Virus record (IMG/VR): IMGVR_UViG_2541047887_000002
Length of the DNA stretch: 24,712 nt
Source: a virus
Taxonomy: Duplodnaviria > Heunggongvirae > Uroviricota > Caudoviricetes
Direction: 5' to 3' (one strand)
Part shown: piece after piece, positions 5,188 to 21,952 of the stretch
Layout of the letters: each line of letters opens with the position of its first letter
Numbering within the stretch: position 1 is the stretch's first letter
Program-made: the position numbers and the translations under genes
Notes under the pieces: model-generated
Told to the model about the DNA's origin: nothing
The model's input: only the letters and a program-made list of their open reading frames with translations
Databases searched by the model: none

Positions 5188-5876
5188 TCACTGAGACACT
5201 ATTAAAAGCGCGTTTTCCAGTCCAGCAAATGGATCTGATACGCCTTCTGTCTGCTCCTTCTCCCACTGAAGAAGCGCATCATTCAGTGGCACTTTGACCC
5301 CCTGCGCACCGTAAACAGCTGAAACAATCTGGGCAGCCCGGATATCAGCCCGTTCGTCCCCCAGCGGGCTGAACCTGTCAAATTCTGCCCACATCATGAT
5401 TTCTGATGCGGACATTTCCCGGCGTAACTCTGACAATGTGCGCCCCATCCTGAGCGCCAGCATCATCAGAAAACGCATCCCCGGAAGCGCTACTTTTTTT
5501 TAACCTCGCCGGCATCACTGATTAGTTCCAGAGACTGCCGAAGAAGCCGCGCATGCACCGGGCCATACACGGCAATCACCTGTTCACGATCATCCTCTGA
5601 AAATACAGGTTGCAGTCCGGTATCACACAGAACATCGATGAACAGTTCAACATCCGCTTCCAGATTTCGGCGGGCGCGCTCCGCAACGGATAACGGTGTC
5701 TCATCATCTTTTGCTTTAACGATCTCCTGCCAGCGCAACCAGGCTTCTGCAGAAGGTTCCCGTAATACAACCGTTGCCCCTTCCCATTCAGGCACATCAA
5801 CAGTTTTATGGCGAAACCCCGACATCGTTGCCAGTGCCAGATTACGGATATTTTTAGTCATCACATCTATCCTCAT
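5188..5876 (-). CDS. GT: Tail assembly chaperone GT, made by a programmed -1 ribosomal frameshift
   Basis: Minus-strand heptamer A AAA AAG (plus 5493-5499) sits just before the G stop TAG. The -1 frame is open from the slip site to the stop at 5188 and encodes ...KKVALPGMRFLMMLALR.... Confidence 0.75.
5490..5876 (-). CDS. G: Tail assembly chaperone G
   Basis: 128-aa acidic protein ending GEVKKK-stop. Its start overlaps the V stop (TAATG). Its 3' end carries the slippery heptamer. Confidence 0.85.
   Translation of the reverse strand: MRIDVMTKNIRNLALATMSGFRHKTVDVPEWEGATVVLREPSAEAWLRWQEIVKAKDDETPLSVAERARRNLEADVELFIDVLCDTGLQPVFSEDDREQVIAVYGPVHARLLRQSLELISDAGEVKKK
5493..5499 (-). promoter_or_regulatory. 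-1 frameshift slippery heptamer A AAA AAG for G to GT
   Basis: Read directly from the sequence. The conserved G/GT frameshift of long-tailed phages is established knowledge. Confidence 0.7.
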
Positions 5877-6580
5877 TAACTGACGGTAACAGTGCAGGAA
5901 GTAGAGGTCACTTTGTTAACCGGGCTTGCTGAATCAGAAATCTCGCAGGTATATGCACCCGCATCACCGGATACTGCCGATGCCTTACTGAACGTTGCCG
6001 CCGTCTGTCCGGAAACAGGAGAACCACCTTTCTTCCAGACATAAGAATAAGGCGGCACACCACCCGCAGCCTCAACCGCCATTTCAAGTTTCGATCCGGA
6101 AGCAACCCGCAGCGTGCTTTTTAAATCGACCTTCACTTTCAGCGGCTCTGTCGTCAGCACAGGTTTACCTTTCAGGCGCAGAGAAAACGTTGCAGCCACA
6201 ACACCATTGGTTCCTGCAGACCAGGTATGCTGACGCACCTCTGCCATAAAGGTAAATCCGTTGCCTGACGGAAAAATAACTTTAAAGCCATACGTGGTGT
6301 CATTGTCATAGGCACTGCGCAACGCGTTCTGGGCAGCATTGAGGTAAAAGTTGCCTGACATGGAAATCTCTGAAGCAGCACCAAGGCCGTTAATATTTTC
6401 CTGCTCAACAGAACACAGCGTGGTGACATCAATATCCTGCTTTTGTCCTGCAGTAAACTGCACCTCTTTGATTGTACAGCTCAGGCCAAGATAGCTGGCA
6501 GAATCCAGGGTTTCTGCTGTTACCGGTGCAGACGAAATCATAATTTTCGTCAGTTGCGAACGCTCAAAATTAGAGGACAT
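5876..6580 (-). CDS. V: Major tail protein with C-terminal Ig-like domain
   Basis: ATG at 6578-6580 (MSSNFERSQ...) with an AGGAGA Shine-Dalgarno. The C-terminal segment GGVPPYSYVWKKGGSPVSG...AGAYTCEISD resembles a Big_2/Ig-like domain. Confidence 0.85.
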   Translation of the reverse strand: MSSNFERSQLTKIMISSAPVTAETLDSASYLGLSCTIKEVQFTAGQKQDIDVTTLCSVEQENINGLGAASEISMSGNFYLNAAQNALRSAYDNDTTYGFKVIFPSGNGFTFMAEVRQHTWSAGTNGVVAATFSLRLKGKPVLTTEPLKVKVDLKSTLRVASGSKLEMAVEAAGGVPPYSYVWKKGGSPVSGQTAATFSKASAVSGDAGAYTCEISDSASPVNKVTSTSCTVTVS

Positions 6581-6596
6581 ACTCGTCTCCTGAAAA

Positions 6597-6618
6597 TAAA
6601 AAACCCGCCAGCGGCGGG
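6597..6618 (-). terminator. Intrinsic terminator-like hairpin upstream of the major tail gene
   Basis: Minus strand reads CCCGCCGCUGGCGGG followed by UUUUUAUUUU, in the gap between the tail completion gene and V. Confidence 0.45.
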
Positions 6619-6639
6619 TGGGTAAAATCATTAACGACC

Positions 6640-6984
6640 TCAGGCTATTACCTGAAATTCAAGCGTGGCTCTGCTCAGACGGGAGTCAGGATCATACCCC
6701 TGCGTTTTAGAAATAACGGAGGGTGCCAGTTTCCTTACTGCATCAAGCGCCTGCTCACGAATATCATCTGCGTCATCAGGTACTGTCGCCCAGACATCGA
6801 TCTGCACGGTAATTCTGGATTCAGCCTGCCCATCAAGCACATCAGATGCCGTGTCAGACACCACAGAAAACACCAGCCACGGCGGAGATACCGCAGGCTT
6901 TCCCTCCGTCAGCGGGACCACATAAGGATAAACCTGTCCTCCGGCCAGCTGAGACAACAGGGAATACAGTGTGCCCTCCCTCAT
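6640..6984 (-). CDS. Tail completion/terminator protein (DUF3168-like); family assignment tentative
   Basis: 114-aa ORF in the conserved position just upstream of the major tail gene. Overlaps the next gene by 4 nt. Confidence 0.7.
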   Translation of the reverse strand: MREGTLYSLLSQLAGGQVYPYVVPLTEGKPAVSPPWLVFSVVSDTASDVLDGQAESRITVQIDVWATVPDDADDIREQALDAVRKLAPSVISKTQGYDPDSRLSRATLEFQVIA

Positions 6985-7430
6985 TTACTTAAGACCTCAT
7001 CAATAGCCTGATTCATTCGCTGTATGGCAACCTGCGCCGCCAGCTCCTCTGTCGTATCGAAAGCCGGGCGAATGAATGGATGCGCGGGCATGTTTATCGT
7101 TCCCAGCTCCACAAAGCGCCAGTAAAATGCATTTCGGGGATCGCTGGCTTTCATGCTGTTATCACTGTTTCCGGTTCGCAGGTTCCGTCCGCGAATGTGG
7201 ACACCCGAGATAATTTCCCCCCGACGCTTTGAACGCTGAGTGAGAACAACCACATTTTTCTTCAGTTTCCCGGTTCGCTCCGGCGCACGTTCAACAACTG
7301 CATCCCGCATAACTTCAGCACCGGCACGGGTGGCATCGCGCAGAACCTTATTGTTTTCTGCCCTGCTGAGCGTCTCCAGATCCCGTGCAATATCCGCCAG
7401 GCCGGAAAAATCAAGACTGAAATCCATCAC
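6981..7430 (-). CDS. HK97 gp10-family head-tail joining protein
   Basis: 149-aa ORF MMDFSLDFSGLADIARDLE..., translationally coupled to its neighbours. The position and start motif fit the HK97 gp10 family. Confidence 0.75.
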   Translation of the reverse strand: MMDFSLDFSGLADIARDLETLSRAENNKVLRDATRAGAEVMRDAVVERAPERTGKLKKNVVVLTQRSKRRGEIISGVHIRGRNLRTGNSDNSMKASDPRNAFYWRFVELGTINMPAHPFIRPAFDTTEELAAQVAIQRMNQAIDEVLSK

Positions 7431-7765
7431 ACATTCCCCTTCAGGCTGCAGAGTATTTCAAGCCGGGTAGCGCGTGCATCCGGTATTGGTGGACCTTCTA
7501 TACCCAGAATGGCCCCTTTAAATGCACCGGTCAGCACTTTCAGACGTGAAGTCGCTGTCACATCGCGCCGGAATCTCATCCAGACTCTGACCGTAGCCTG
7601 AGCGGTTTCTGCTCCGCCTGAGATTATCTCCCTCCCGCTGATACCCTTAACTTCTGCCCATACGGTAGCTCCCTCCGTCACCGTCTCCACCGGATGCCCT
7701 GACGGAGAGCGGGCGGTGGTGACATTCAGAATAATTACGCGATCACGTAATCTGCCCGCCTGCAT
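7427..7765 (-). CDS. Head-tail adaptor / head closure protein
   Basis: 112-aa ORF with synteny between the connector and gp10-like genes. Overlaps the next gene by 4 nt. Confidence 0.75.
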   Translation of the reverse strand: MQAGRLRDRVIILNVTTARSPSGHPVETVTEGATVWAEVKGISGREIISGGAETAQATVRVWMRFRRDVTATSRLKVLTGAFKGAILGIEGPPIPDARATRLEILCSLKGNV

Positions 7766-9399: not shown

Positions 9400-9999
9400 T
9401 TATGCATTAAGAAGGGTCAAAAGACGCTCACGCGCCATTCGTTCGTTAACAGCTTTCTTCAGCGCACCACTCGCCCGCGCTTCCTGCCAGGCTTTCATTG
9501 AGCGGACACCAGAGTCTGCGTCCTGATAGGCCGGATATGTCACCGGGCTGACGTCATACAGACGAGAAATGCGCGTGATTTCCCGGATAACAATCCCCTC
9601 GTCGTCTTCATACCAGCTCTCTCCGTCACGGGCGACACGAAACGCGAACGAGGACTGATTAATGTCACCACGCAACATTGGAGACAGCACCAGGTCACAA
9701 ATAGTCGGAGTATCCGGTGCAACAATGTCATAACGTAAACCGCGTTCATCCACCGACAATGACAACGTGCCGGCAGAACTTCGTCCGAGAATGAAATTAG
9801 GATCATGATTAAACAAGCCACGTACATCATCATTCAGTACATCATCAAAAGCCCCCGGCTTGATGATTTCACGAAATCCCCACAGAGGTTCTGAACGACT
9901 GTTAAATACCGAGCCATACCCCAGAATGTGGGTCGGGGCATTATCATATTGTTCCGCCCGCACCTCCCCGCTGTAACAGCGCGTTTCACGGTCATTCAT
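9400..9999 (-). CDS. Prohead maturation protease, HK97 family
   Basis: 199-aa ORF between portal and capsid genes. Its start overlaps the portal stop (ATGAATGA). Confidence 0.85.
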   Translation of the reverse strand: MNDRETRCYSGEVRAEQYDNAPTHILGYGSVFNSRSEPLWGFREIIKPGAFDDVLNDDVRGLFNHDPNFILGRSSAGTLSLSVDERGLRYDIVAPDTPTICDLVLSPMLRGDINQSSFAFRVARDGESWYEDDEGIVIREITRISRLYDVSPVTYPAYQDADSGVRSMKAWQEARASGALKKAVNERMARERLLTLLNA

Positions 10000-11218
10000 C
10001 GTTCTTTTCCTCTTTGCCTTTCGTATCTTTAAAGTTATTCAACGGATTTGCTGCATTTACGCTGACCAGCATTTCATCCAGACCGTCAACCGGGTTCATA
10101 TCCTCAAATGCCCTGGCTTCATTCCGACTCATCCAGCCATCTGTAATGGCAAAGTGATAGAACTGCGCACGCTCCTGTGGGGTCCCACGGAGCAACCCCG
10201 TGAGGTTGAAACGAACGTAATACCCGGCAGCCCGTTCTGTACGGGTAAACAGGCGACGGTTAAGCTCCTGCTCCCAGTTCGCAACCCAGGGCATCATCGT
10301 GTAGCGAACAAACTGAATCGCCTGCTGCGTAATATTCGAAAATGTGGCTTTTTCCAGGTCATTAATCATGTGCGCCGGGACATTAAAAATCCCGGCAATC
10401 ATCGACCGGTTCAGCTTGGTCATATCAATGATCTGAGCATCCACCGGAGAAACTGTCAGAGCGCGGTAATCCAGTTGCGCAGGCAGCAACATGGTTTTAT
10501 TTTCCTGGCTGCGAAGCGCTGTCACCGCCCGCTGCCACATATTTTTAAGCCTGCCCCAGCTTTGTTCGTTCAGTTCATTTTTCACAGAAATAATACCGGC
10601 AGGACGGGCATTACCGTTAAAAAAGGCGCTGGTATACTGCTGGCCACTCATTCCCATACCAATGGTTTCAGCATGCTGCATGATCGGGCTCAGTCCCATT
10701 TTCTGATTGTTTCCCAGCGCCCTGATATGGATCATGTCGTCCGGACTTACCGCAAATGCACCCTCTTCGTTATACACCCCGTAAGTATGACGCCCACCGG
10801 TGTTAAGTAACGTGGTTTCCCATGGCATACAGCATTCAAGGCTGGTAACCTCTCCACGACGATTACGTTTTACCCACGTATAACCATTGCCCCACCCCAG
10901 CACATGACGCTGCTTCAGTTCCCGCCACTTATAGCTGGTCTGCCAGGCATTAGGTTCATCATGAACGAGCCAGAACAACGGATGATCGCGTGCCGGCTGA
11001 ACATGCTCATTCGTTTTTCGCATCACATGCAGGGGCATCTGAGCCACACTGGATGAAATAACATAAATACAGGCATAGACAGCAGCCAGCTTCATGGATG
11101 TTTCCGGACTGACATACACATCCCGGGCAAAAATATTATCCGTCTCAGCGGCCTCTCCGGTTACCGGAACCGAGGGATTTTCCAGAGGCTCACTGCGAAA
11201 CAGAGCATCAAGAAGCAT
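9992..11218 (-). CDS. Portal protein, HK97 family
   Basis: 408-aa ORF downstream of the large terminase, with typical portal size and an acidic C-terminal tail. Confidence 0.9.
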   Translation of the reverse strand: MLLDALFRSEPLENPSVPVTGEAAETDNIFARDVYVSPETSMKLAAVYACIYVISSSVAQMPLHVMRKTNEHVQPARDHPLFWLVHDEPNAWQTSYKWRELKQRHVLGWGNGYTWVKRNRRGEVTSLECCMPWETTLLNTGGRHTYGVYNEEGAFAVSPDDMIHIRALGNNQKMGLSPIMQHAETIGMGMSGQQYTSAFFNGNARPAGIISVKNELNEQSWGRLKNMWQRAVTALRSQENKTMLLPAQLDYRALTVSPVDAQIIDMTKLNRSMIAGIFNVPAHMINDLEKATFSNITQQAIQFVRYTMMPWVANWEQELNRRLFTRTERAAGYYVRFNLTGLLRGTPQERAQFYHFAITDGWMSRNEARAFEDMNPVDGLDEMLVSVNAANPLNNFKDTKGKEEKNDE

Positions 11219-11365: not shown

Positions 11366-13123
11366 TCACAGAATTAACAGGTCCTCATCAGGATCAAGCG
11401 TGGACAGAAAGTCATTCACGCCCCCTCCATTTACCAGAAAGCGGCTCATGGCTGTAAAAAGCGCAACAGGGCCGTCGATTTTGGCTTCCGGCGTGGATTT
11501 ATTCGGGAAGATGTTGTCGTTTTTGTCCGGTTTTACAGTAACGTTAGACATCATCCAGTTCATGACCGGATGATTGCTGTGATGGAAACGCCCGGCATAA
11601 ACCAGTGATTCCGTTTCCTTCATGGCCTCTGACAGATTGCGGACCGTCTGCGGAACCTCCACCAGCGGTATCCCTTCTTCAGCCAGTGCCAGGCTGAACT
11701 GCATTGCGCTCCACGGGTCAAATCCCAGTTCCCTGAGGTTTTCACCGCCAATCCATTCCAGTAAGTCACTTTTTATCTGAGCATGATCGATAACATCACC
11801 ATCCGTCAGGATGAGCTTATCCATCTCCGCCCACTTCCGGTAAAGTTCTGCCTGCTGCCGCGAGCATCGTTCCAGCCGTCCTTCCGGAAGCCAGAATTTA
11901 AAATCAGCATGAACATGTCCGTTATCGGTTCGCCAGAGTTTTGCCGCCGCACAGATATCAATCTTATGAGCAAGGTCGACGCCGACCCACATGGGATATG
12001 TTTTCAGCTCATGTTGTGGAGCAATGTATTCGCACTTCTCCCACTTAATCATATCCATCCAGGCAGATTCGGCAGTGACCCACACATTCATGTGTTTGGT
12101 AAAAAAATTCACCCGCGCAGAGACCTGCTCCTTCGCTTTTTTCGCCAGACGACGCAGATCATCCCAGCGTTTACAGATGCCCAGGCCAGGATTCGCTTTC
12201 TGCCAGACCGTTTCATCAAACGGATCATCTCCCTCATCAAGCGTGTAAATGATCGCAAAGTAAGAGTCGTCTTTTACAGCGCCCTCCACGTCGCTGTTAT
12301 AGCCTCGCAATACCTTGATGGCGTAATCACGCTGCTCGTAACAAATCCCTTCCTTGTTAAAGCCAGCCGTGGTGATACCAAATAACAGGGACTGCAGACG
12401 GGCACCGGTTGCCGTTTCCAGAACGTCCCACACGTCGCGGGTTTTATGTGCATGCAGCTCATCAATAATGGCGCAGTGGATGTTCAGACCGTCCAGGTTG
12501 TTTGCATCCGAGGAAAGCGGTTCAAATTTTGATGCGCTCTGCTCCTGGTAAATCGCCAGCTTGTTGAAATCAAACAACCGCCCGAGTGTCGACCGGGCTT
12601 TTCTGACCATATTTTTGGCGTCTTCAAACACGATTCTGGCCTGGTCACGCGTGGTTGCGGCTGAATACACCTCAGCTCCGCCTTCACTATCTGCCCCCGT
12701 CATATACAGGCCGATACCCGATGACAGTGTTGATTTTGCGTTTTTACGGGCGACTTCGTTGTACGCCGTCCGGAACCGGCGCACCATCACCGGACGTCCG
12801 CTGCCATCGCTGCGCATGACAACTTCCCCGGTTTCTTCATTGACCAGCGGAATGACAAAACCAAAAATATTAATGAGGATAAATACATGCCAGTCCATCA
12901 ACTCAATGGGCTGGCCTGCCAGTACCCCTTTTACATGAGGCACAAATTTGTAGAAATTCAGGATGTGCTGCGCACGGGGTTCACTGAAATAAATCCCCCG
13001 CTTTTCGCCGTACTTCAGATCATCAAGAAAACGCTGGCAGGCCAGGCGGACAAATTCGCCAGCAACAATTTCTCCTGCAACAACACGTTCGGCGTAGCGG
13101 ATCCCGTCAGCCACTTTTGCCAT
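11366..13123 (-). CDS. Terminase large subunit
   Basis: 585-aa ORF with an ATPase-like N-terminal region and nuclease-like C-terminal region. Its start overlaps the small terminase stop (ATGA). Confidence 0.9.
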   Translation of the reverse strand: MAKVADGIRYAERVVAGEIVAGEFVRLACQRFLDDLKYGEKRGIYFSEPRAQHILNFYKFVPHVKGVLAGQPIELMDWHVFILINIFGFVIPLVNEETGEVVMRSDGSGRPVMVRRFRTAYNEVARKNAKSTLSSGIGLYMTGADSEGGAEVYSAATTRDQARIVFEDAKNMVRKARSTLGRLFDFNKLAIYQEQSASKFEPLSSDANNLDGLNIHCAIIDELHAHKTRDVWDVLETATGARLQSLLFGITTAGFNKEGICYEQRDYAIKVLRGYNSDVEGAVKDDSYFAIIYTLDEGDDPFDETVWQKANPGLGICKRWDDLRRLAKKAKEQVSARVNFFTKHMNVWVTAESAWMDMIKWEKCEYIAPQHELKTYPMWVGVDLAHKIDICAAAKLWRTDNGHVHADFKFWLPEGRLERCSRQQAELYRKWAEMDKLILTDGDVIDHAQIKSDLLEWIGGENLRELGFDPWSAMQFSLALAEEGIPLVEVPQTVRNLSEAMKETESLVYAGRFHHSNHPVMNWMMSNVTVKPDKNDNIFPNKSTPEAKIDGPVALFTAMSRFLVNGGGVNDFLSTLDPDEDLLIL

Positions 13124-13605
13124 CAGTCTCTCGCTTTTAAAAGCTCTGCCAGCGGATCAACATTATCCGGTCCGGCGGTATTTACTTTTGCCCGGCTTGC
13201 CGGTGACATACCAAATTCTGCAAGCATCGCCCGGATCCGCTTCCAGGCATCCGCTTTCATCGCAGCAGCCGGGTGTGCCTTAATCAGCACATCACCGTTC
13301 TGCGTTTCCGAGCGGTAGGTGTACCCCTCAACATCGAGTGTTTCGCAGTGATGCCGGTATTCGGTATAGGCTTCCACCAGTAGCTCAAGCGCACGCGCAT
13401 CAAGCTGAGAAATGATCCCTTCCGCATTCAGCTCTTCCGCCATTCGCCTGAACCAGTACTTCCCCTGCGCCCCTAAATGTTGCGGAATTTTAGGGAGACC
13501 TTTTTCATCCTTTTTAGCGGTTTTTTTGAGGTCTTTAACTGGCCGCTTTGAGGGGTTGCCTCGTATCAAATGCAGGCGTGGCGGGATTTTCGGGGGTCCA
13601 GACAT
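13123..13605 (-). CDS. Terminase small subunit (P27-family like)
   Basis: 160-aa basic ORF immediately upstream of the large terminase and translationally coupled to it. Confidence 0.8.
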   Translation of the reverse strand: MSGPPKIPPRLHLIRGNPSKRPVKDLKKTAKKDEKGLPKIPQHLGAQGKYWFRRMAEELNAEGIISQLDARALELLVEAYTEYRHHCETLDVEGYTYRSETQNGDVLIKAHPAAAMKADAWKRIRAMLAEFGMSPASRAKVNTAGPDNVDPLAELLKARD

Positions 13606-13752: not shown

Positions 13753-14103
13753 TCAATTGATGCGTTCGCGCGCTGTTTTTGCTTTATGACAGGGCCAGCA
13801 CAGACTCTGCAGGTTACTGTCTGCATCTGTGCCACCATGAGCTTTCGGAATGATGTGGTCCACAGTTCTGGCTTCAACGGCTCTCCCATTGCGCAGGCAG
13901 TTCTGACACAGATGATTATCACGCTTCAGTATGCGCGCACGTATGGCATCCCATTTCGAGCCATAGCCACGCTGGTGGCGGCTCAGTCCGCGTTGATGCT
14001 TTACCCATCCTTCGCCACGATGTTTATCGCAGTAACCAGAACTGTCTGTGGTTGTACCTGCACATCCACGCTTACGGCAGGCGCGTGGGATTAGTGCTGG
14101 CAT
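13753..14103 (-). CDS. HNH homing-type endonuclease, terminase-associated
   Basis: 116-aa ORF with CxxC...HxxxxH...CxxCH HNH motifs (CQNCLRNG...DHIIPKAHGG...CWPCH). Sits next to the terminase as in HK97-like phages. Confidence 0.85.
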   Translation of the reverse strand: MPALIPRACRKRGCAGTTTDSSGYCDKHRGEGWVKHQRGLSRHQRGYGSKWDAIRARILKRDNHLCQNCLRNGRAVEARTVDHIIPKAHGGTDADSNLQSLCWPCHKAKTARERIN

Positions 14104-14241
14104 GTTTCGCCCTTATATAAATCAAAGGTGACCTGCATTGAGTATCTCCATGGAATAGATTTGCTGCTGATATGAGACAGATCAATAGACTTCATGAGCC
14201 AACGGGTGTAGATATTACTTTTTACTTCAGAGGGTTAACTC

Positions 14242-14781
14242 ATGGATATTAAAGATAAAATCAATACCATTTTGTTATGTGACATTGCCATCCACCTAGG
14301 TATCGAAACTGATATTGATCCACAGCTTGTTAAATATGCTGTGTCATCTGGTAATGATTGGGTTATCAAGGCCGAATATTCACATTTGGATGTTGACGAA
14401 CCAAGTAAAGAAGATCGTGATTTTGTTACTGCTGTCTTGAATATGTATCGCGGACTTTCCAATGCTTTCAGGAAACTTAGTGATGACGAGCAAAAAGAAT
14501 TAGTCCGTGACCATCATCTAAAAATACATGATGGGGCAATTCAGCTCCCAGGTTTCGACGGTAATAATGAATGCGATTACTTCAGTATCATTGAGGCATA
14601 TCAGAAAATTGATCGCTTCCCCGAACAGAAACAGCCCATTGCCAATACTCATTCACGTACAGAACATCTCTATAACGCAATGCTTGATGAGTTTAAGAAA
14701 ATTGACGCTGTAAATCGAAGCTGGGATTTATCGAAGGAAGAACTGGCATCCATTCTTTCCACAGCTCCACGCAGTTTCTAA
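14242..14781 (+). CDS. YfbU-family (UPF0304) protein, moron gene on the opposite strand to the late operon
   Basis: 179-aa ORF with ATG at 14242 and an AGGG Shine-Dalgarno. AT-rich by eye. Sequence reminiscent of E. coli YfbU. Followed by its own plus-strand terminator. Confidence 0.7.
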   Translation: MDIKDKINTILLCDIAIHLGIETDIDPQLVKYAVSSGNDWVIKAEYSHLDVDEPSKEDRDFVTAVLNMYRGLSNAFRKLSDDEQKELVRDHHLKIHDGAIQLPGFDGNNECDYFSIIEAYQKIDRFPEQKQPIANTHSRTEHLYNAMLDEFKKIDAVNRSWDLSKEELASILSTAPRSF

Positions 14782-14786
14782 GTGCT

Positions 14787-15053
14787 TTAGGCGGGTTTCC
14801 AACCCGCCTTATTATGCTCGTATATAGAGAAGGAAGCACCCAAATTAACCAGCGCGGATTTCTTTTCCTCAATACGGCTGTTAAGTTCAGCAACTGCATG
14901 CGGGCGTATGGCCTCAAGAAAAGCACTATATTGATAGGCAGACTGGATTGTCACACCAAGCCCTGCACCACTTTCCAGTATACCTTTCTGTCGCTGTAGC
15001 TCTTTCATCTCGTTATAGATGTAATGTGCGTTACTTAGGTTTTCTACGTTCAC
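14787..15053 (-). CDS. Hypothetical protein (88 aa, GTG start); may be spurious
   Basis: Six-frame ORF convergent with the YfbU-like gene. Its last codons run through the terminator hairpin. GGAAG lies about 10 nt upstream of the GTG. No recognisable motif. Confidence 0.3.
   Translation of the reverse strand: MNVENLSNAHYIYNEMKELQRQKGILESGAGLGVTIQSAYQYSAFLEAIRPHAVAELNSRIEEKKSALVNLGASFSIYEHNKAGWKPA
14789..14815 (+). terminator. Intrinsic terminator of the YfbU-like gene
   Basis: 9-bp stem AGGCGGGUU / AACCCGCCU with a 3-nt loop, followed by UUAUUAU, starting 8 nt after the stop codon. Confidence 0.6.
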
Positions 15054-15208
15054 GCCCTAAGTTCTTCCTGCAGTTAGCCTGCACTGATTTGTTATGCGCC
15101 AATATGTCCCGCTTCGTCTGTTGCATTATCATAAGTAATAGCGTAGGTTGACACCTTGGCTCTCTTTCGCCACCGGCGAATCTTTAGCGGATTATCCTTG
15201 GCCGGTTT

Positions 15209-15676
15209 TTATCTGAGACATTGCTCACGAATGTATAGCTGTGCCCCTTCCAGTTGCTTCTGCATCGTCATCAACCGTTCTCTGAGGGTGAAATAATCCC
15301 GTTCAGCGGTGTCTGCCAGTCTGGGGCTGGTTGCATTATCCACGCTGGTGGGTCCGGTGGCTTCACGCACGGCTGCGGAGCAACTGGCATTGACCCGCAG
15401 GCGCTTACGACCAGCGGCAACATCAGCGCGCAGAGTTTCATTTTCAGCTTTCGCATTGGCTAATTCTCTCGAGTACTTTGCATCGAGCGCAGCAACATCA
15501 CGCTGACGCTGTTGCATGTCAGCGATGGTGGCAGTCGCCTGCTTCAGCTCACTGACTTTTTTATCACGCTGTTCTTTGTAGGCGATGGCGTTATCACGGT
15601 AATGATTGACCGCCCACGACAGGCAGACGATGGTGCAGATAACCAGAGTATAAATAATCGCTGCGACTCTGCTCAC
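15209..15676 (-). CDS. Rz: Rz i-spanin
   Basis: GTG start overlapping the endolysin stop (GTGA), with a GGGGGA Shine-Dalgarno. N-terminal transmembrane segment and coiled-coil periplasmic domain; collinear with lambda Rz. Confidence 0.85.
15271..15456 (-). CDS. Rz1: Rz1 o-spanin lipoprotein, embedded in the +1 frame of Rz
   Basis: 61-aa [25 protein letters not shown]... with lipobox LVVSAC and a Pro-rich mature part ([24 protein letters not shown]). Confidence 0.85.
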
Positions 15677-16206
15677 TGATCTATCCCCCAACAGGCTAAT
15701 GCGCTTTCCTGGTCACGACGAATAACCTGTCCATAGCAGTTATTTGAACGTATGCGGCAATCGCGCCCACCATCTTTTATCCACCAGCGAATCGCCTCGC
15801 ATGCGCCCTTACGATCACCGGCATTCAGCCGCTTATAAAACGTCGACGGGAAACACTTACCGGGGCCAATGTTATAGGGACAGAATGACGCTATACCCGC
15901 TTTCTGTGGTTCGGTCAGTGGTACTTTAATATTGCGCTCTACCCATGCCAGCGCCTTATCACGTTCAATAGCGTTAACCTGGTCGCATTTTTCCTTCGAC
16001 AGCTTCATTCCCGGTATGACGGGCTTACCATCCACCATTGTGGCACCCCGACAGATGGTCCAGATGCCGGCCCCATCGCGGTATGCCGTTGTGTGGTTAC
16101 CTTCTTTTTCATCCAGAAACTGGTCGAGAATATCAGGCGCGGGCGCACCGACGGCAATCAGTGCCAGAACGGCAGCCGACAGGCCGTATCTGATTTTTGC
16201 GTTCAT
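15673..16206 (-). CDS. R: SAR endolysin (T4-lysozyme-like / GH24, phage 21 R type)
   Basis: 177-aa ORF with an N-terminal hydrophobic signal-anchor-release segment ([18 protein letters not shown]) and catalytic spacing E-8aa-D-5aa-T ([16 protein letters not shown]). Confidence 0.9.
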
Positions 16207-16620: not shown

Positions 16621-16629
16621 TGAATTACT

Positions 16630-16632
16630 CTC
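16630..16632. repeat. Target-site duplication CTC, left copy
   Basis: Identical 3-bp CTC flanks both IS ends (16630-16632 and 17883-17885). Confidence 0.7.
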
Positions 16633-16704
16633 TGAAGTGGTTTACTGAATTTGGCCACCTGAACAGAGGTGATATGCTCACCTCAGAACAACACAGGTGC
16701 CATA

Positions 16705-18093
<1,389 letters not shown>

Positions 18094-18230
18094 AGCCTCA
18101 CCTCCGCAGCGAACGGATGGCGTAGTTATAAGGGGAGCGAAAAAGAAAGAATGCGCGATTGCGCAATATGGTAACGTCAGGGTATTATCCACTGGCTGAA
18201 TAGATCACTTCACGTTTTTTGTTCCTTGCC

Positions 18231-18258: not shown

Positions 18259-18264
18259 GCATGT

Positions 18265-18294
18265 AAAAAGGCCCCAACACATGTGCGTGGGGCC
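18265..18294 (-). terminator. Minus-strand intrinsic terminator-like hairpin
   Basis: Minus strand reads GGCCCCACGCACAUGUGUUGGGGCC followed by UUUUU. Confidence 0.45.
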
Positions 18295-18494
18295 TGAGAG
18301 TATACATGGTTTCAGTCAACTGCATGGTGCCGGGTGCCTCCCGGTGAATTCAGTACCAGCACCTGAATCCGCGATTATCCCATATACCTACTCGCTGATT
18401 GCCCCTCCGCACAGGGGGATTCACCATGCCAGTTTCTTTTAACAAACTCCCCGCAAAACAGACAACTGTCAACCGTCTGAATTGTGAGACATTT

Positions 18495-18534: not shown

Positions 18535-18611
18535 TGGCGCGTTGTACTGGATTCGAACCAGTGACCGATTGCTTAGAAGGCAATTGCTCTGTCCGGTTGA
18601 GCTAACAACGC
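18535..18611 (-). tRNA. tRNA-Arg (anticodon UCU)
   Basis: Hand-folded cloverleaf: acceptor GCGUUGU/ACAACGC, D-stem GCUC/GAGC, anticodon stem AUUGC/GCAAU with loop CUUCUAA, T-loop UUCGAAU, encoded 3' CCA. Confidence 0.75.
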
Positions 18612-18624
18612 AGGGTACAGATAA

Positions 18625-18701
18625 TGGACCGCCATCGAGGACTCGAACCCCGCGCAACCAGCTTCGAAGGCTGGTGCTCTATCCTGATGAGCTAATGGCG
18701 G
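18625..18701 (-). tRNA. tRNA-Arg (anticodon UCG)
   Basis: Hand-folded cloverleaf: acceptor CCGCCAU/AUGGCGG, D-stem GCUC/GAGC, anticodon stem CCAGC/GCUGG with loop CUUCGAA, T-loop UUCGAGU, encoded CCA. The 5' end is uncertain by 1 nt. Confidence 0.65.
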
Positions 18702-18708
18702 TATGTGA

Positions 18709-18784
18709 TGGTGGCCCTTGCTGGATTTGAACCAGCGACCTGGCGATTATGAGTCGCTCGCTCTCACCTCTGAGCTAAAGGGCC
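18709..18784 (-). tRNA. tRNA with anticodon CAU, most likely tRNA-Ile2 (ileX/ileZ-like); elongator Met not excluded
   Basis: Sequence GGCCCUUUAGCUCAG...GACUCAUAAUCGC...GGUUCAAAUCCAGCAAGGGCCACCA closely resembles E. coli ileX as I recall it. Anticodon loop CUCAUAA. Confidence 0.7.
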
Positions 18785-21543: not shown

Positions 21544-21699
21544 TTACTCCTCAGGTTCGTAGACTGTGAAGACAGCGACCTCCGTCTGGCCGGTTCGGAT
21601 TCGTACCTCGCAGAGGTCTTTCCTCGTTACCAGTGCCGTCACTATGACGGTTAAACAGATGACGATCAGGGCGATTAACATCGCCTTTTGCTGCTTCAT
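21544..21699 (-). CDS. hok: Hok-family type I toxin (HokD/RelF-like, 51 aa)
   Basis: MKQQKAMLIALIVICLTVIVTALVTRKDLCEVRIRTGQTEVAVFTVYEPEE is near-identical to E. coli HokD as I recall it. AAGGAG Shine-Dalgarno upstream. Confidence 0.85.
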   Translation of the reverse strand: MKQQKAMLIALIVICLTVIVTALVTRKDLCEVRIRTGQTEVAVFTVYEPEE

Positions 21700-21756
21700 A
21701 GCCTGCTTCTCCTTGCCTTTCGGCACGTAAGAGGCTAACCTAGATTTGCCGTTCAT
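21544..21756 (-). CDS. mok: Mok-like overlapping reading frame (translational coupler for hok)
   Basis: In-frame upstream extension of 70 aa from ATG 21754-21756, as in hok/mok/sok loci. Confidence 0.4.
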   Translation of the reverse strand: MNGKSRLASYVPKGKEKQAMKQQKAMLIALIVICLTVIVTALVTRKDLCEVRIRTGQTEVAVFTVYEPEE

Positions 21757-21952
21757 AGATTGAGCCTCAGATTAATGTTAAGCGTCTTGCAGGACGCGTA
21801 ATGTTAACTGGGGCTTTTCTCTATCTGCCTTTGGTGTTCATGCCTGAGGCAGATAGCCTCAAGCACCCGCAGCAATTCTACTTAAGTTAGATAAGCTTTT
21901 CTATGGTATTCTCTCAGCGTCCCGTAAATACAGTCTCGGCTCATCATTTTTA

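Follow-up and report, generated by a model that had tools for sequence, protein, structure and literature searches.

A lambdoid, HK97-like Escherichia coli prophage carries an AT-rich moron cassette in a variable cargo slot flanked by its packaging and lysis genes, and the larger of the cassette's two genes encodes a 179-amino-acid, two-domain helical protein of the YfbU family. The window in which it lies is the whole 24,712-nt stretch of IMG/VR virus record IMGVR_UViG_2541047887_000002 (Caudoviricetes); strain CE10, in which the YfbU-like gene is locus CE10_RS05480, has the identical region inside a complete lambdoid prophage. The late operon is on the minus strand, the YfbU-like gene on the plus strand. 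By analogy with Kamadhenu, a validated antiphage system with the same domain, this gene could be a lysogen-expressed, single-gene phage defence, a reading to which we give about even chances.

The 179-amino-acid protein matches the Pfam YfbU model PF03887 over residues 46-172 (E 6.5e-12; 46.3 bits, cutoff 25), and this is its only domain above cutoff. It also matches phrog_6084 (E 8e-83), and a profile built from 30 members of its subfamily matches PDB structures 1WPB and 4LR3 (E 3e-9, residues 54-173). The original prediction, made from the DNA letters, had proposed a YfbU-like gene opposite to the late operon, and the Pfam and structure searches bear it out; RefSeq had already named the product ‘YfbU family protein’. 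Identity as a Cfr10I/Bse634I restriction enzyme was rejected, the Pfam match (E 0.0015, 18.4 bits) falling below its cutoff of 27 and the structural model having the helical YfbU fold. Compared with homologues of 81-83% identity, the gene shows a ratio of non-synonymous to synonymous substitution rates (dN/dS) of 0.075-0.126 where dS could be estimated, indicating purifying selection and hence a functional gene rather than a chance open reading frame (ORF).

The YfbU/UPF0304 fold has had a solved structure since 2004 but no assigned biochemistry. Its housekeeping representative in E. coli (b2294; PDB 1WPB, 4LR3) shares the GFD...E...Y core motif with the window protein, but is a core chromosomal gene beside hxpA and yfbV, whereas the window gene is prophage cargo. 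The K-12 protein has 164 amino acids, is only ~21% identical to the window protein (BLASTP E 0.044), and has GFDAATE where the window clade has GFDGNNE. Against the NCBIfam YfbU equivalog NF003936 the window protein scores 34.8 bits, short of the cutoff of 90, so neither score nor chromosomal context makes it an ortholog of housekeeping YfbU. Among 294 collected members, which include plasmid-borne Enterococcus and also Listeria forms, residues G104, F105, D106, N108, E110, N135 and H137 are 90-99% conserved (the polar D106, N108, E110, N135 and H137, 90-98%). The signature that results is GFDGNxE...N[S/T]H; K-12 YfbU has NAQ at the second of these motifs. The window protein belongs to a distinct clade of ~180 amino acids, mostly on mobile elements, and the conserved polar cluster looks like a clade-specific binding or catalytic site. 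A profile search of the whole library returned 2112 clusters at 50% identity, of which 850 had E<=1e-10; most of the proteins are ~175-190 amino acids long.

The defence reading takes its precedent from Kamadhenu, a 180-amino-acid YfbU-domain protein of Lactococcus plasmid pUCCL624_130, for which the BioProject is PRJNA1086404; it has been validated as an antiphage system consisting of one gene (Grafakou et al., NAR 2024, PMC11381338). Its action comes after DNA injection, and at high multiplicity of infection the phenotype is that of abortive infection (PMC11381338); its escape mutants all have a change at G22 of a Sak-like single-strand annealing protein (PMC12184496). The window protein is likewise the product of a single stand-alone gene on a mobile element, of nearly the same size, with PF03887 as its only domain and with no obligatory partner. 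The two differ in setting, Kamadhenu coming from a Lactococcus plasmid and the window protein from a prophage of a Gram-negative enterobacterium. The original prediction had held that YfbU is not a named phage-defence factor; Kamadhenu contradicts this, and the novelty claimed there was overstated. What is plausibly new here is a Gram-negative, prophage-borne YfbU defence candidate, a protein of the Kamadhenu type being known already; the literature searched contained no account of YfbU proteins carried by prophages of Enterobacteria. GiPD474, a defence protein of the Gifsy prophage, which has an ATPase domain and was absent from a text search for YfbU, was treated as unrelated.

YfbU-family genes are also very common on Enterococcus plasmids (257-269 PLSDB records, e.g. 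L025 4001-4528), many of which are conjugative or mobilizable, and many of these gene copies are truncated; Listeria forms of 180 amino acids exist as well. In light of Kamadhenu, the Enterococcus and Listeria forms may be regarded as further defence candidates.

The setting of the gene is that of a moron. The DNA between the HNH and Rz genes, ~1.1 kb, had been described as an AT-rich island, and GC content indeed drops to 0.36-0.46 across 14150-15199 from ~0.51-0.55 on both sides; the YfbU-like gene itself is at 0.39, against 0.51 in its flanks. The flanking genes are confirmed by Pfam (Table 1), and the coordinates first assigned to the features proved correct throughout. In sibling E. coli prophages whose HNH genes are 98-99% identical, the same slot holds iss (the bor homologue), a GNAT acetyltransferase gene or nothing, and the cargo is always on the plus strand, opposite to the late operon. 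Empty versions occur in H205/H206 and in phage Evi, where the slot measures only ~50 bp, which shows that the insert is dispensable for the phage. Relative to the iss, GNAT and empty versions, similarity breaks on the left exactly at the HNH start codon (14103). On the right it resumes at 15069 (GNAT version), 15210 (iss version) or 15239 (Evi), with 98% identity to the GNAT-carrying prophage from 15069 on and 93.8% identity to PhiR phages from ~15155 on. The extent first given to the island, 14104-15208, thus holds for the cassette-specific DNA up to 15068, while the last 140 positions are post-Rz DNA shared with sibling prophages. Neither direct nor inverted repeats of the kind found at transposon ends were detected around the cassette, and an Rfam scan of the island gave no RNA family.

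The likeness to the lambda bor moron that the original prediction had drawn is strengthened by the presence of iss in the exact slot, antisense to the late operon. Lambda bor and E. coli iss, like the YfbU-like cassette, lie downstream of Rz and upstream of the packaging genes, have low GC and carry their own hairpin. Their products are another matter: Bor/Iss is an outer-membrane lipoprotein for serum resistance, while the YfbU-like product is unrelated to it, helical and cytoplasmic, with no signal peptide or lipobox visible in its 179 residues. About 1011 complete E. coli genomes have the same HNH type. The YfbU-like gene is present in about a fifth of that number, 225 of the 5426 complete genomes; every copy is chromosomal and has at least 95% identity.

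The occupants of the slot also give rise to the chief alternative, that the YfbU-like gene is a lysogenic-conversion factor, a host YfbU paralogue tuning a stress or DNA-damage death response or some other host trait in the manner of iss/bor. Both iss and the GNAT gene are host-trait genes rather than defence genes, family and fold are common to the window protein and host YfbU, and E. coli yfbU has been reported as a ‘death gene’ on which mazEF-linked killing depends once DNA is damaged (PMC2646832). Yet the identity to K-12 YfbU is low and the equivalog cutoff is missed, the signature residues N108 and H137 are not in host YfbU, and the sole experimentally assigned role of a mobile-element YfbU protein is antiphage (PMC11381338). 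Regulated cell death and abortive infection are, besides, compatible with each other. We consider a pure conversion role rather unlikely.

Homologues elsewhere recur in similar positions. Relatives of 30-83% identity are found in unrelated prophages of Enterobacterales, Aeromonas and Pseudomonas, mostly antisense to the late genes and most often between lysis and terminase genes. Those in this last position (39-83% identity, on the strand opposite to the late genes) come from Enterobacter, Providencia, Citrobacter, Superficieibacter, uncultured samples and others, and their host prophages differ in lysis cassette and in terminase, which may be of lambda Nu1/GpA type or of P27/HNH type. Other positions are between Q and the lysis genes (a Pseudomonas prophage), adjoining a recombinase (an Aeromonas prophage) and late in the genome (a Yersinia P2-like phage), and a 29% identical homologue adjoins an EcoRI restriction-modification system and a NucS-like nuclease. 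In all eight prophage backgrounds compared (the window and seven others) the upstream phage DNA exceeds the gene in GC content by 11-19 points; the gap on the other side is smaller, at 2-15 points. Comparison of neighbouring genes across the homologues revealed no conserved partner.

The Rz-to-HNH/terminase junction is therefore an exchange slot in which iss, GNAT, kinase and phosphatase, or YfbU-like genes are found, and the lysis-terminase slot gathers accessory or defence-like cargo of various kinds. The kinase and phosphatase genes (Ser/Thr kinase and PP2C phosphatase) occupy the same slot in the L033/L034 prophage (5990-7488 and 9538-10170 noted), which has a 63% identical YfbU-like gene and, just upstream of its holin, a HicAB toxin-antitoxin pair. 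In the GNAT-carrying sibling L026 (1859-2059 and 2304-2789), the slot is immediately followed by a 66-amino-acid hypothetical gene with the strand of the late operon, and the post-Rz spacer is common with window positions 15069-15208. Three prophages have a conserved cos-like sequence, GCCGTTTCCCGCGTG...GGAGTACCTTTT, between a Nu1-type small terminase gene and the YfbU-like gene (L003 ~5820-5880, L007 ~5810-5870, L011 ~5850-5910); the packaged chromosome would then have the cargo at its extreme right end, as that of lambda has bor.

Position next to packaging genes, and next to this cos-like sequence in prophages with lambda-type terminases, could suggest that the YfbU-like gene works for the phage itself, in its lytic or packaging cycle, or counters a host defence system; YfbU-like proteins are indeed present in deposited phage genomes. 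But the gene is on the strand opposite to every lytic transcription unit, it is absent from phage Evi and from siblings with the same packaging and lysis genes, and homologues occur away from phages, on plasmids and beside a restriction-modification system. We regard this explanation as quite improbable.

The YfbU-like gene has signals of its own. A Shine-Dalgarno sequence, GAGGG, ends 7 nt before its ATG, and a GC-rich hairpin (14790-14808) starts 8 nt past its stop codon, both as originally predicted. The 44-nt stretch with the hairpin folds at -16.5 kcal/mol; its interrupted T tract (TTATTATG) explains why a scan for consensus terminators missed it. All four diverged homologues checked (L003, L007, L011 and L017) likewise have a hairpin after the stop codon.

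Lysogen expression, antiphage activity, trigger and effector chemistry are what we infer for the YfbU-like protein, as follows, the layout being the part of the scheme that is directly shown. In the lysogen, the gene would be weakly transcribed in the direction opposite to the late operon, up to its own hairpin. Its product would act like Kamadhenu, as a single-protein abortive-infection or superinfection defence that works after DNA injection, is linked to the invader's recombination machinery (the single-strand annealing protein) and stops phage production by the infected cell. Upon induction of the resident prophage, Q-antiterminated late transcription would run antisense through the gene, toward the HNH and terminase genes; we propose that this lowers YfbU-like expression and limits self-targeting. 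A comparable case is BstA, a prophage-encoded single-gene abortive-infection protein (PMC8585504). For BstA-type proteins, as for the YfbU-like candidate, a prophage gene acting alone is proposed to make infections by competing phages abort, and for both the question of self-avoidance arises. They have no sequence or fold relationship, and no self-immunity element was identified for the YfbU-like gene, antisense late transcription being only a proposed substitute.

Several observations weigh against the defence reading. Two scans found no convincing sigma-70 promoter in 14104-14241 (the best match is 8/12 with a 19-nt spacer), and promoter scans that also took in the DNA preceding four homologues gave nothing above chance. 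With iss (serum resistance) and GNAT in the same slot, position alone is no proof of defence, and our search of the literature for a lambdoid defence hotspot at the Rz-HNH/terminase junction found nothing relevant. The link to Kamadhenu is through Pfam family, fold and size and not through direct alignment: a tblastn search of PLSDB with three queries (the window protein, K-12 YfbU and a YfbU from an Enterococcus plasmid) gave no Lactococcus match, and a further protein search with cluster look-up gave Enterococcus and Listeria forms only and no Lactococcus protein. One homologue is in a chromosomal island where nothing can be recognised as a phage or defence gene. Finally, PADLOC 2023 had no match for the 179- or the 88-amino-acid protein, a result that is uninformative since Kamadhenu is in neither PADLOC nor DefenseFinder (PMC13335696).

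The second gene of the cassette, an ORF of 88 amino acids convergent with the YfbU-like gene, had been thought a possible partner or an artefact; neither suggestion held up. It matches phrog_5415 (E 2e-38, residues 1-76), though nothing in Pfam or NCBIfam. A 69% identical homologue, ending at residue 76, stands alone in the lysis-terminase slot of Citrobacter phage Chris1, in late-operon orientation. Other relatives come from large virulent phages, namely Escherichia phages IME392 and EP_H11 (111-116 kb), Erwinia phage Bue1 (164 kb) and a 70-kb Salmonella phage, and a family common to temperate and virulent phages more likely serves the phage than the lysogen. A single-sequence AlphaFold2 model is a two-helix hairpin whose mean predicted local distance difference test score (pLDDT) of 69.8 is too weak to justify a fold search. 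The ORF is a real, independent late-operon cargo gene.

That the two genes form a module, e.g. toxin and antitoxin or effector and immunity, might be thought from their adjacent, convergent arrangement and from their travelling together in E. coli, both within 14104-15068. The 88-amino-acid gene, moreover, ends inside the hairpin of the YfbU-like gene, its frame being 12 codons longer here and running through that hairpin. The genes do not co-occur across homologues, however. A tblastn search located the 88-amino-acid protein in the identical E. coli island only, and gave no homologue in the neighbourhood of the YfbU-like genes of L003-L014, where the small convergent ORFs (62 to 143 amino acids) are unrelated to it. 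Gene tables of the other diverged YfbU-like homologues have no counterpart of its size, so that it is absent beside eight in all. Members of its family occur unaccompanied by YfbU genes, both in the corresponding slot of Chris1 and in virulent phages, and Kamadhenu works as a single gene (PMC11381338). Missing co-occurrence has already largely refuted the two-gene module, which we hold to be very improbable.

Table 1. Features of the cargo slot and its flanks (window coordinates)
Feature	Position	Strand	Remarks
Large terminase gene	11366-13123		Late operon
P27-type small terminase gene	13123-13605		Late operon
HNH endonuclease gene, packaging module	13753-14103	-	Pfam HNH E 1.9e-16; start codon is left edge of slot
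Cassette-specific AT-rich cargo DNA (island proper)	14104-15068		No similarity to GNAT, iss or empty slot versions
Region upstream of YfbU-like gene, with presumed promoter	14104-14241	+	Includes Shine-Dalgarno GAGGG, 14230-14234
Divergent YfbU-family gene, 179 amino acids; Kamadhenu-like defence candidate	14242-14781	+	Antisense to late operon
88-amino-acid gene, phrog_5415, independent cargo	14787-15053	-	Late-operon orientation
Hairpin GGCGGGTT-TCC-AACCCGCC then TTATTATG; likely terminator of YfbU-like gene	14790-14816	+	
Spacer downstream of Rz, outside cassette	15069-15208		Common to sibling prophages
Rz spanin gene, right edge of slot	15209-15691	-	Pfam Phage_lysis E 1.9e-49
Rz1 ORF embedded in Rz gene	15271-15456		

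The late operon further comprises tail genes, an HK97-type head, a portal and, past the slot, Rz/Rz1 (the Rz gene is labelled ‘lysis protein / Rz1 family lipoprotein’ at RefSeq), lysozyme and a DUF1327 gene. An IS3-family insertion sequence, 99% identical to ISEc52, lies at 16628-17901 (orfA 16669-17007, orfB 17034-17852), between the DUF1327/ydfR gene and the holin gene, at or a few codons from the 3′ end of the latter, whose frame now runs into the element (ORF 17728-18192, minus strand). The element comes between the late promoter and lysozyme, Rz and every late gene further downstream, and this prophage copy may consequently be defective for lysis and late expression. Rfam matches elsewhere in the prophage are to the small RNA STnc100 (140 bits), three tRNA genes and the sok antitoxin RNA (112 bits), at 18259-18458, 18538-18784 and 21694-21868, all on the minus strand; the last of these families implies a hok/sok module.

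Should the defence reading be right, ~4% of complete E. coli genomes and many prophages of other Enterobacterales would carry an unrecognised single-gene defence that neither PADLOC nor DefenseFinder flags, which would matter for host-range prediction in phage therapy and for typing. The Rz-to-HNH/terminase exchange slot can in any event be mined for further cargo. A broader conjecture, which we think doubtful, is that the ~180-amino-acid clade (~850 clusters at 50% identity, E<=1e-10), ranging over Proteobacterial prophages, Enterococcus plasmids and Listeria forms, could form a single pan-bacterial family whose members each act alone as abortive-infection effectors and sense phage recombination proteins or their DNA intermediates. 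Housekeeping YfbU would then be a domesticated relative, which could explain its reported need in death after DNA damage. The only functional lead for the YfbU/UPF0304 fold would, if the gene is indeed a defence, move into E. coli and its coliphages, where triggers such as Redβ, Erf, Sak and RecT would be dissectable.

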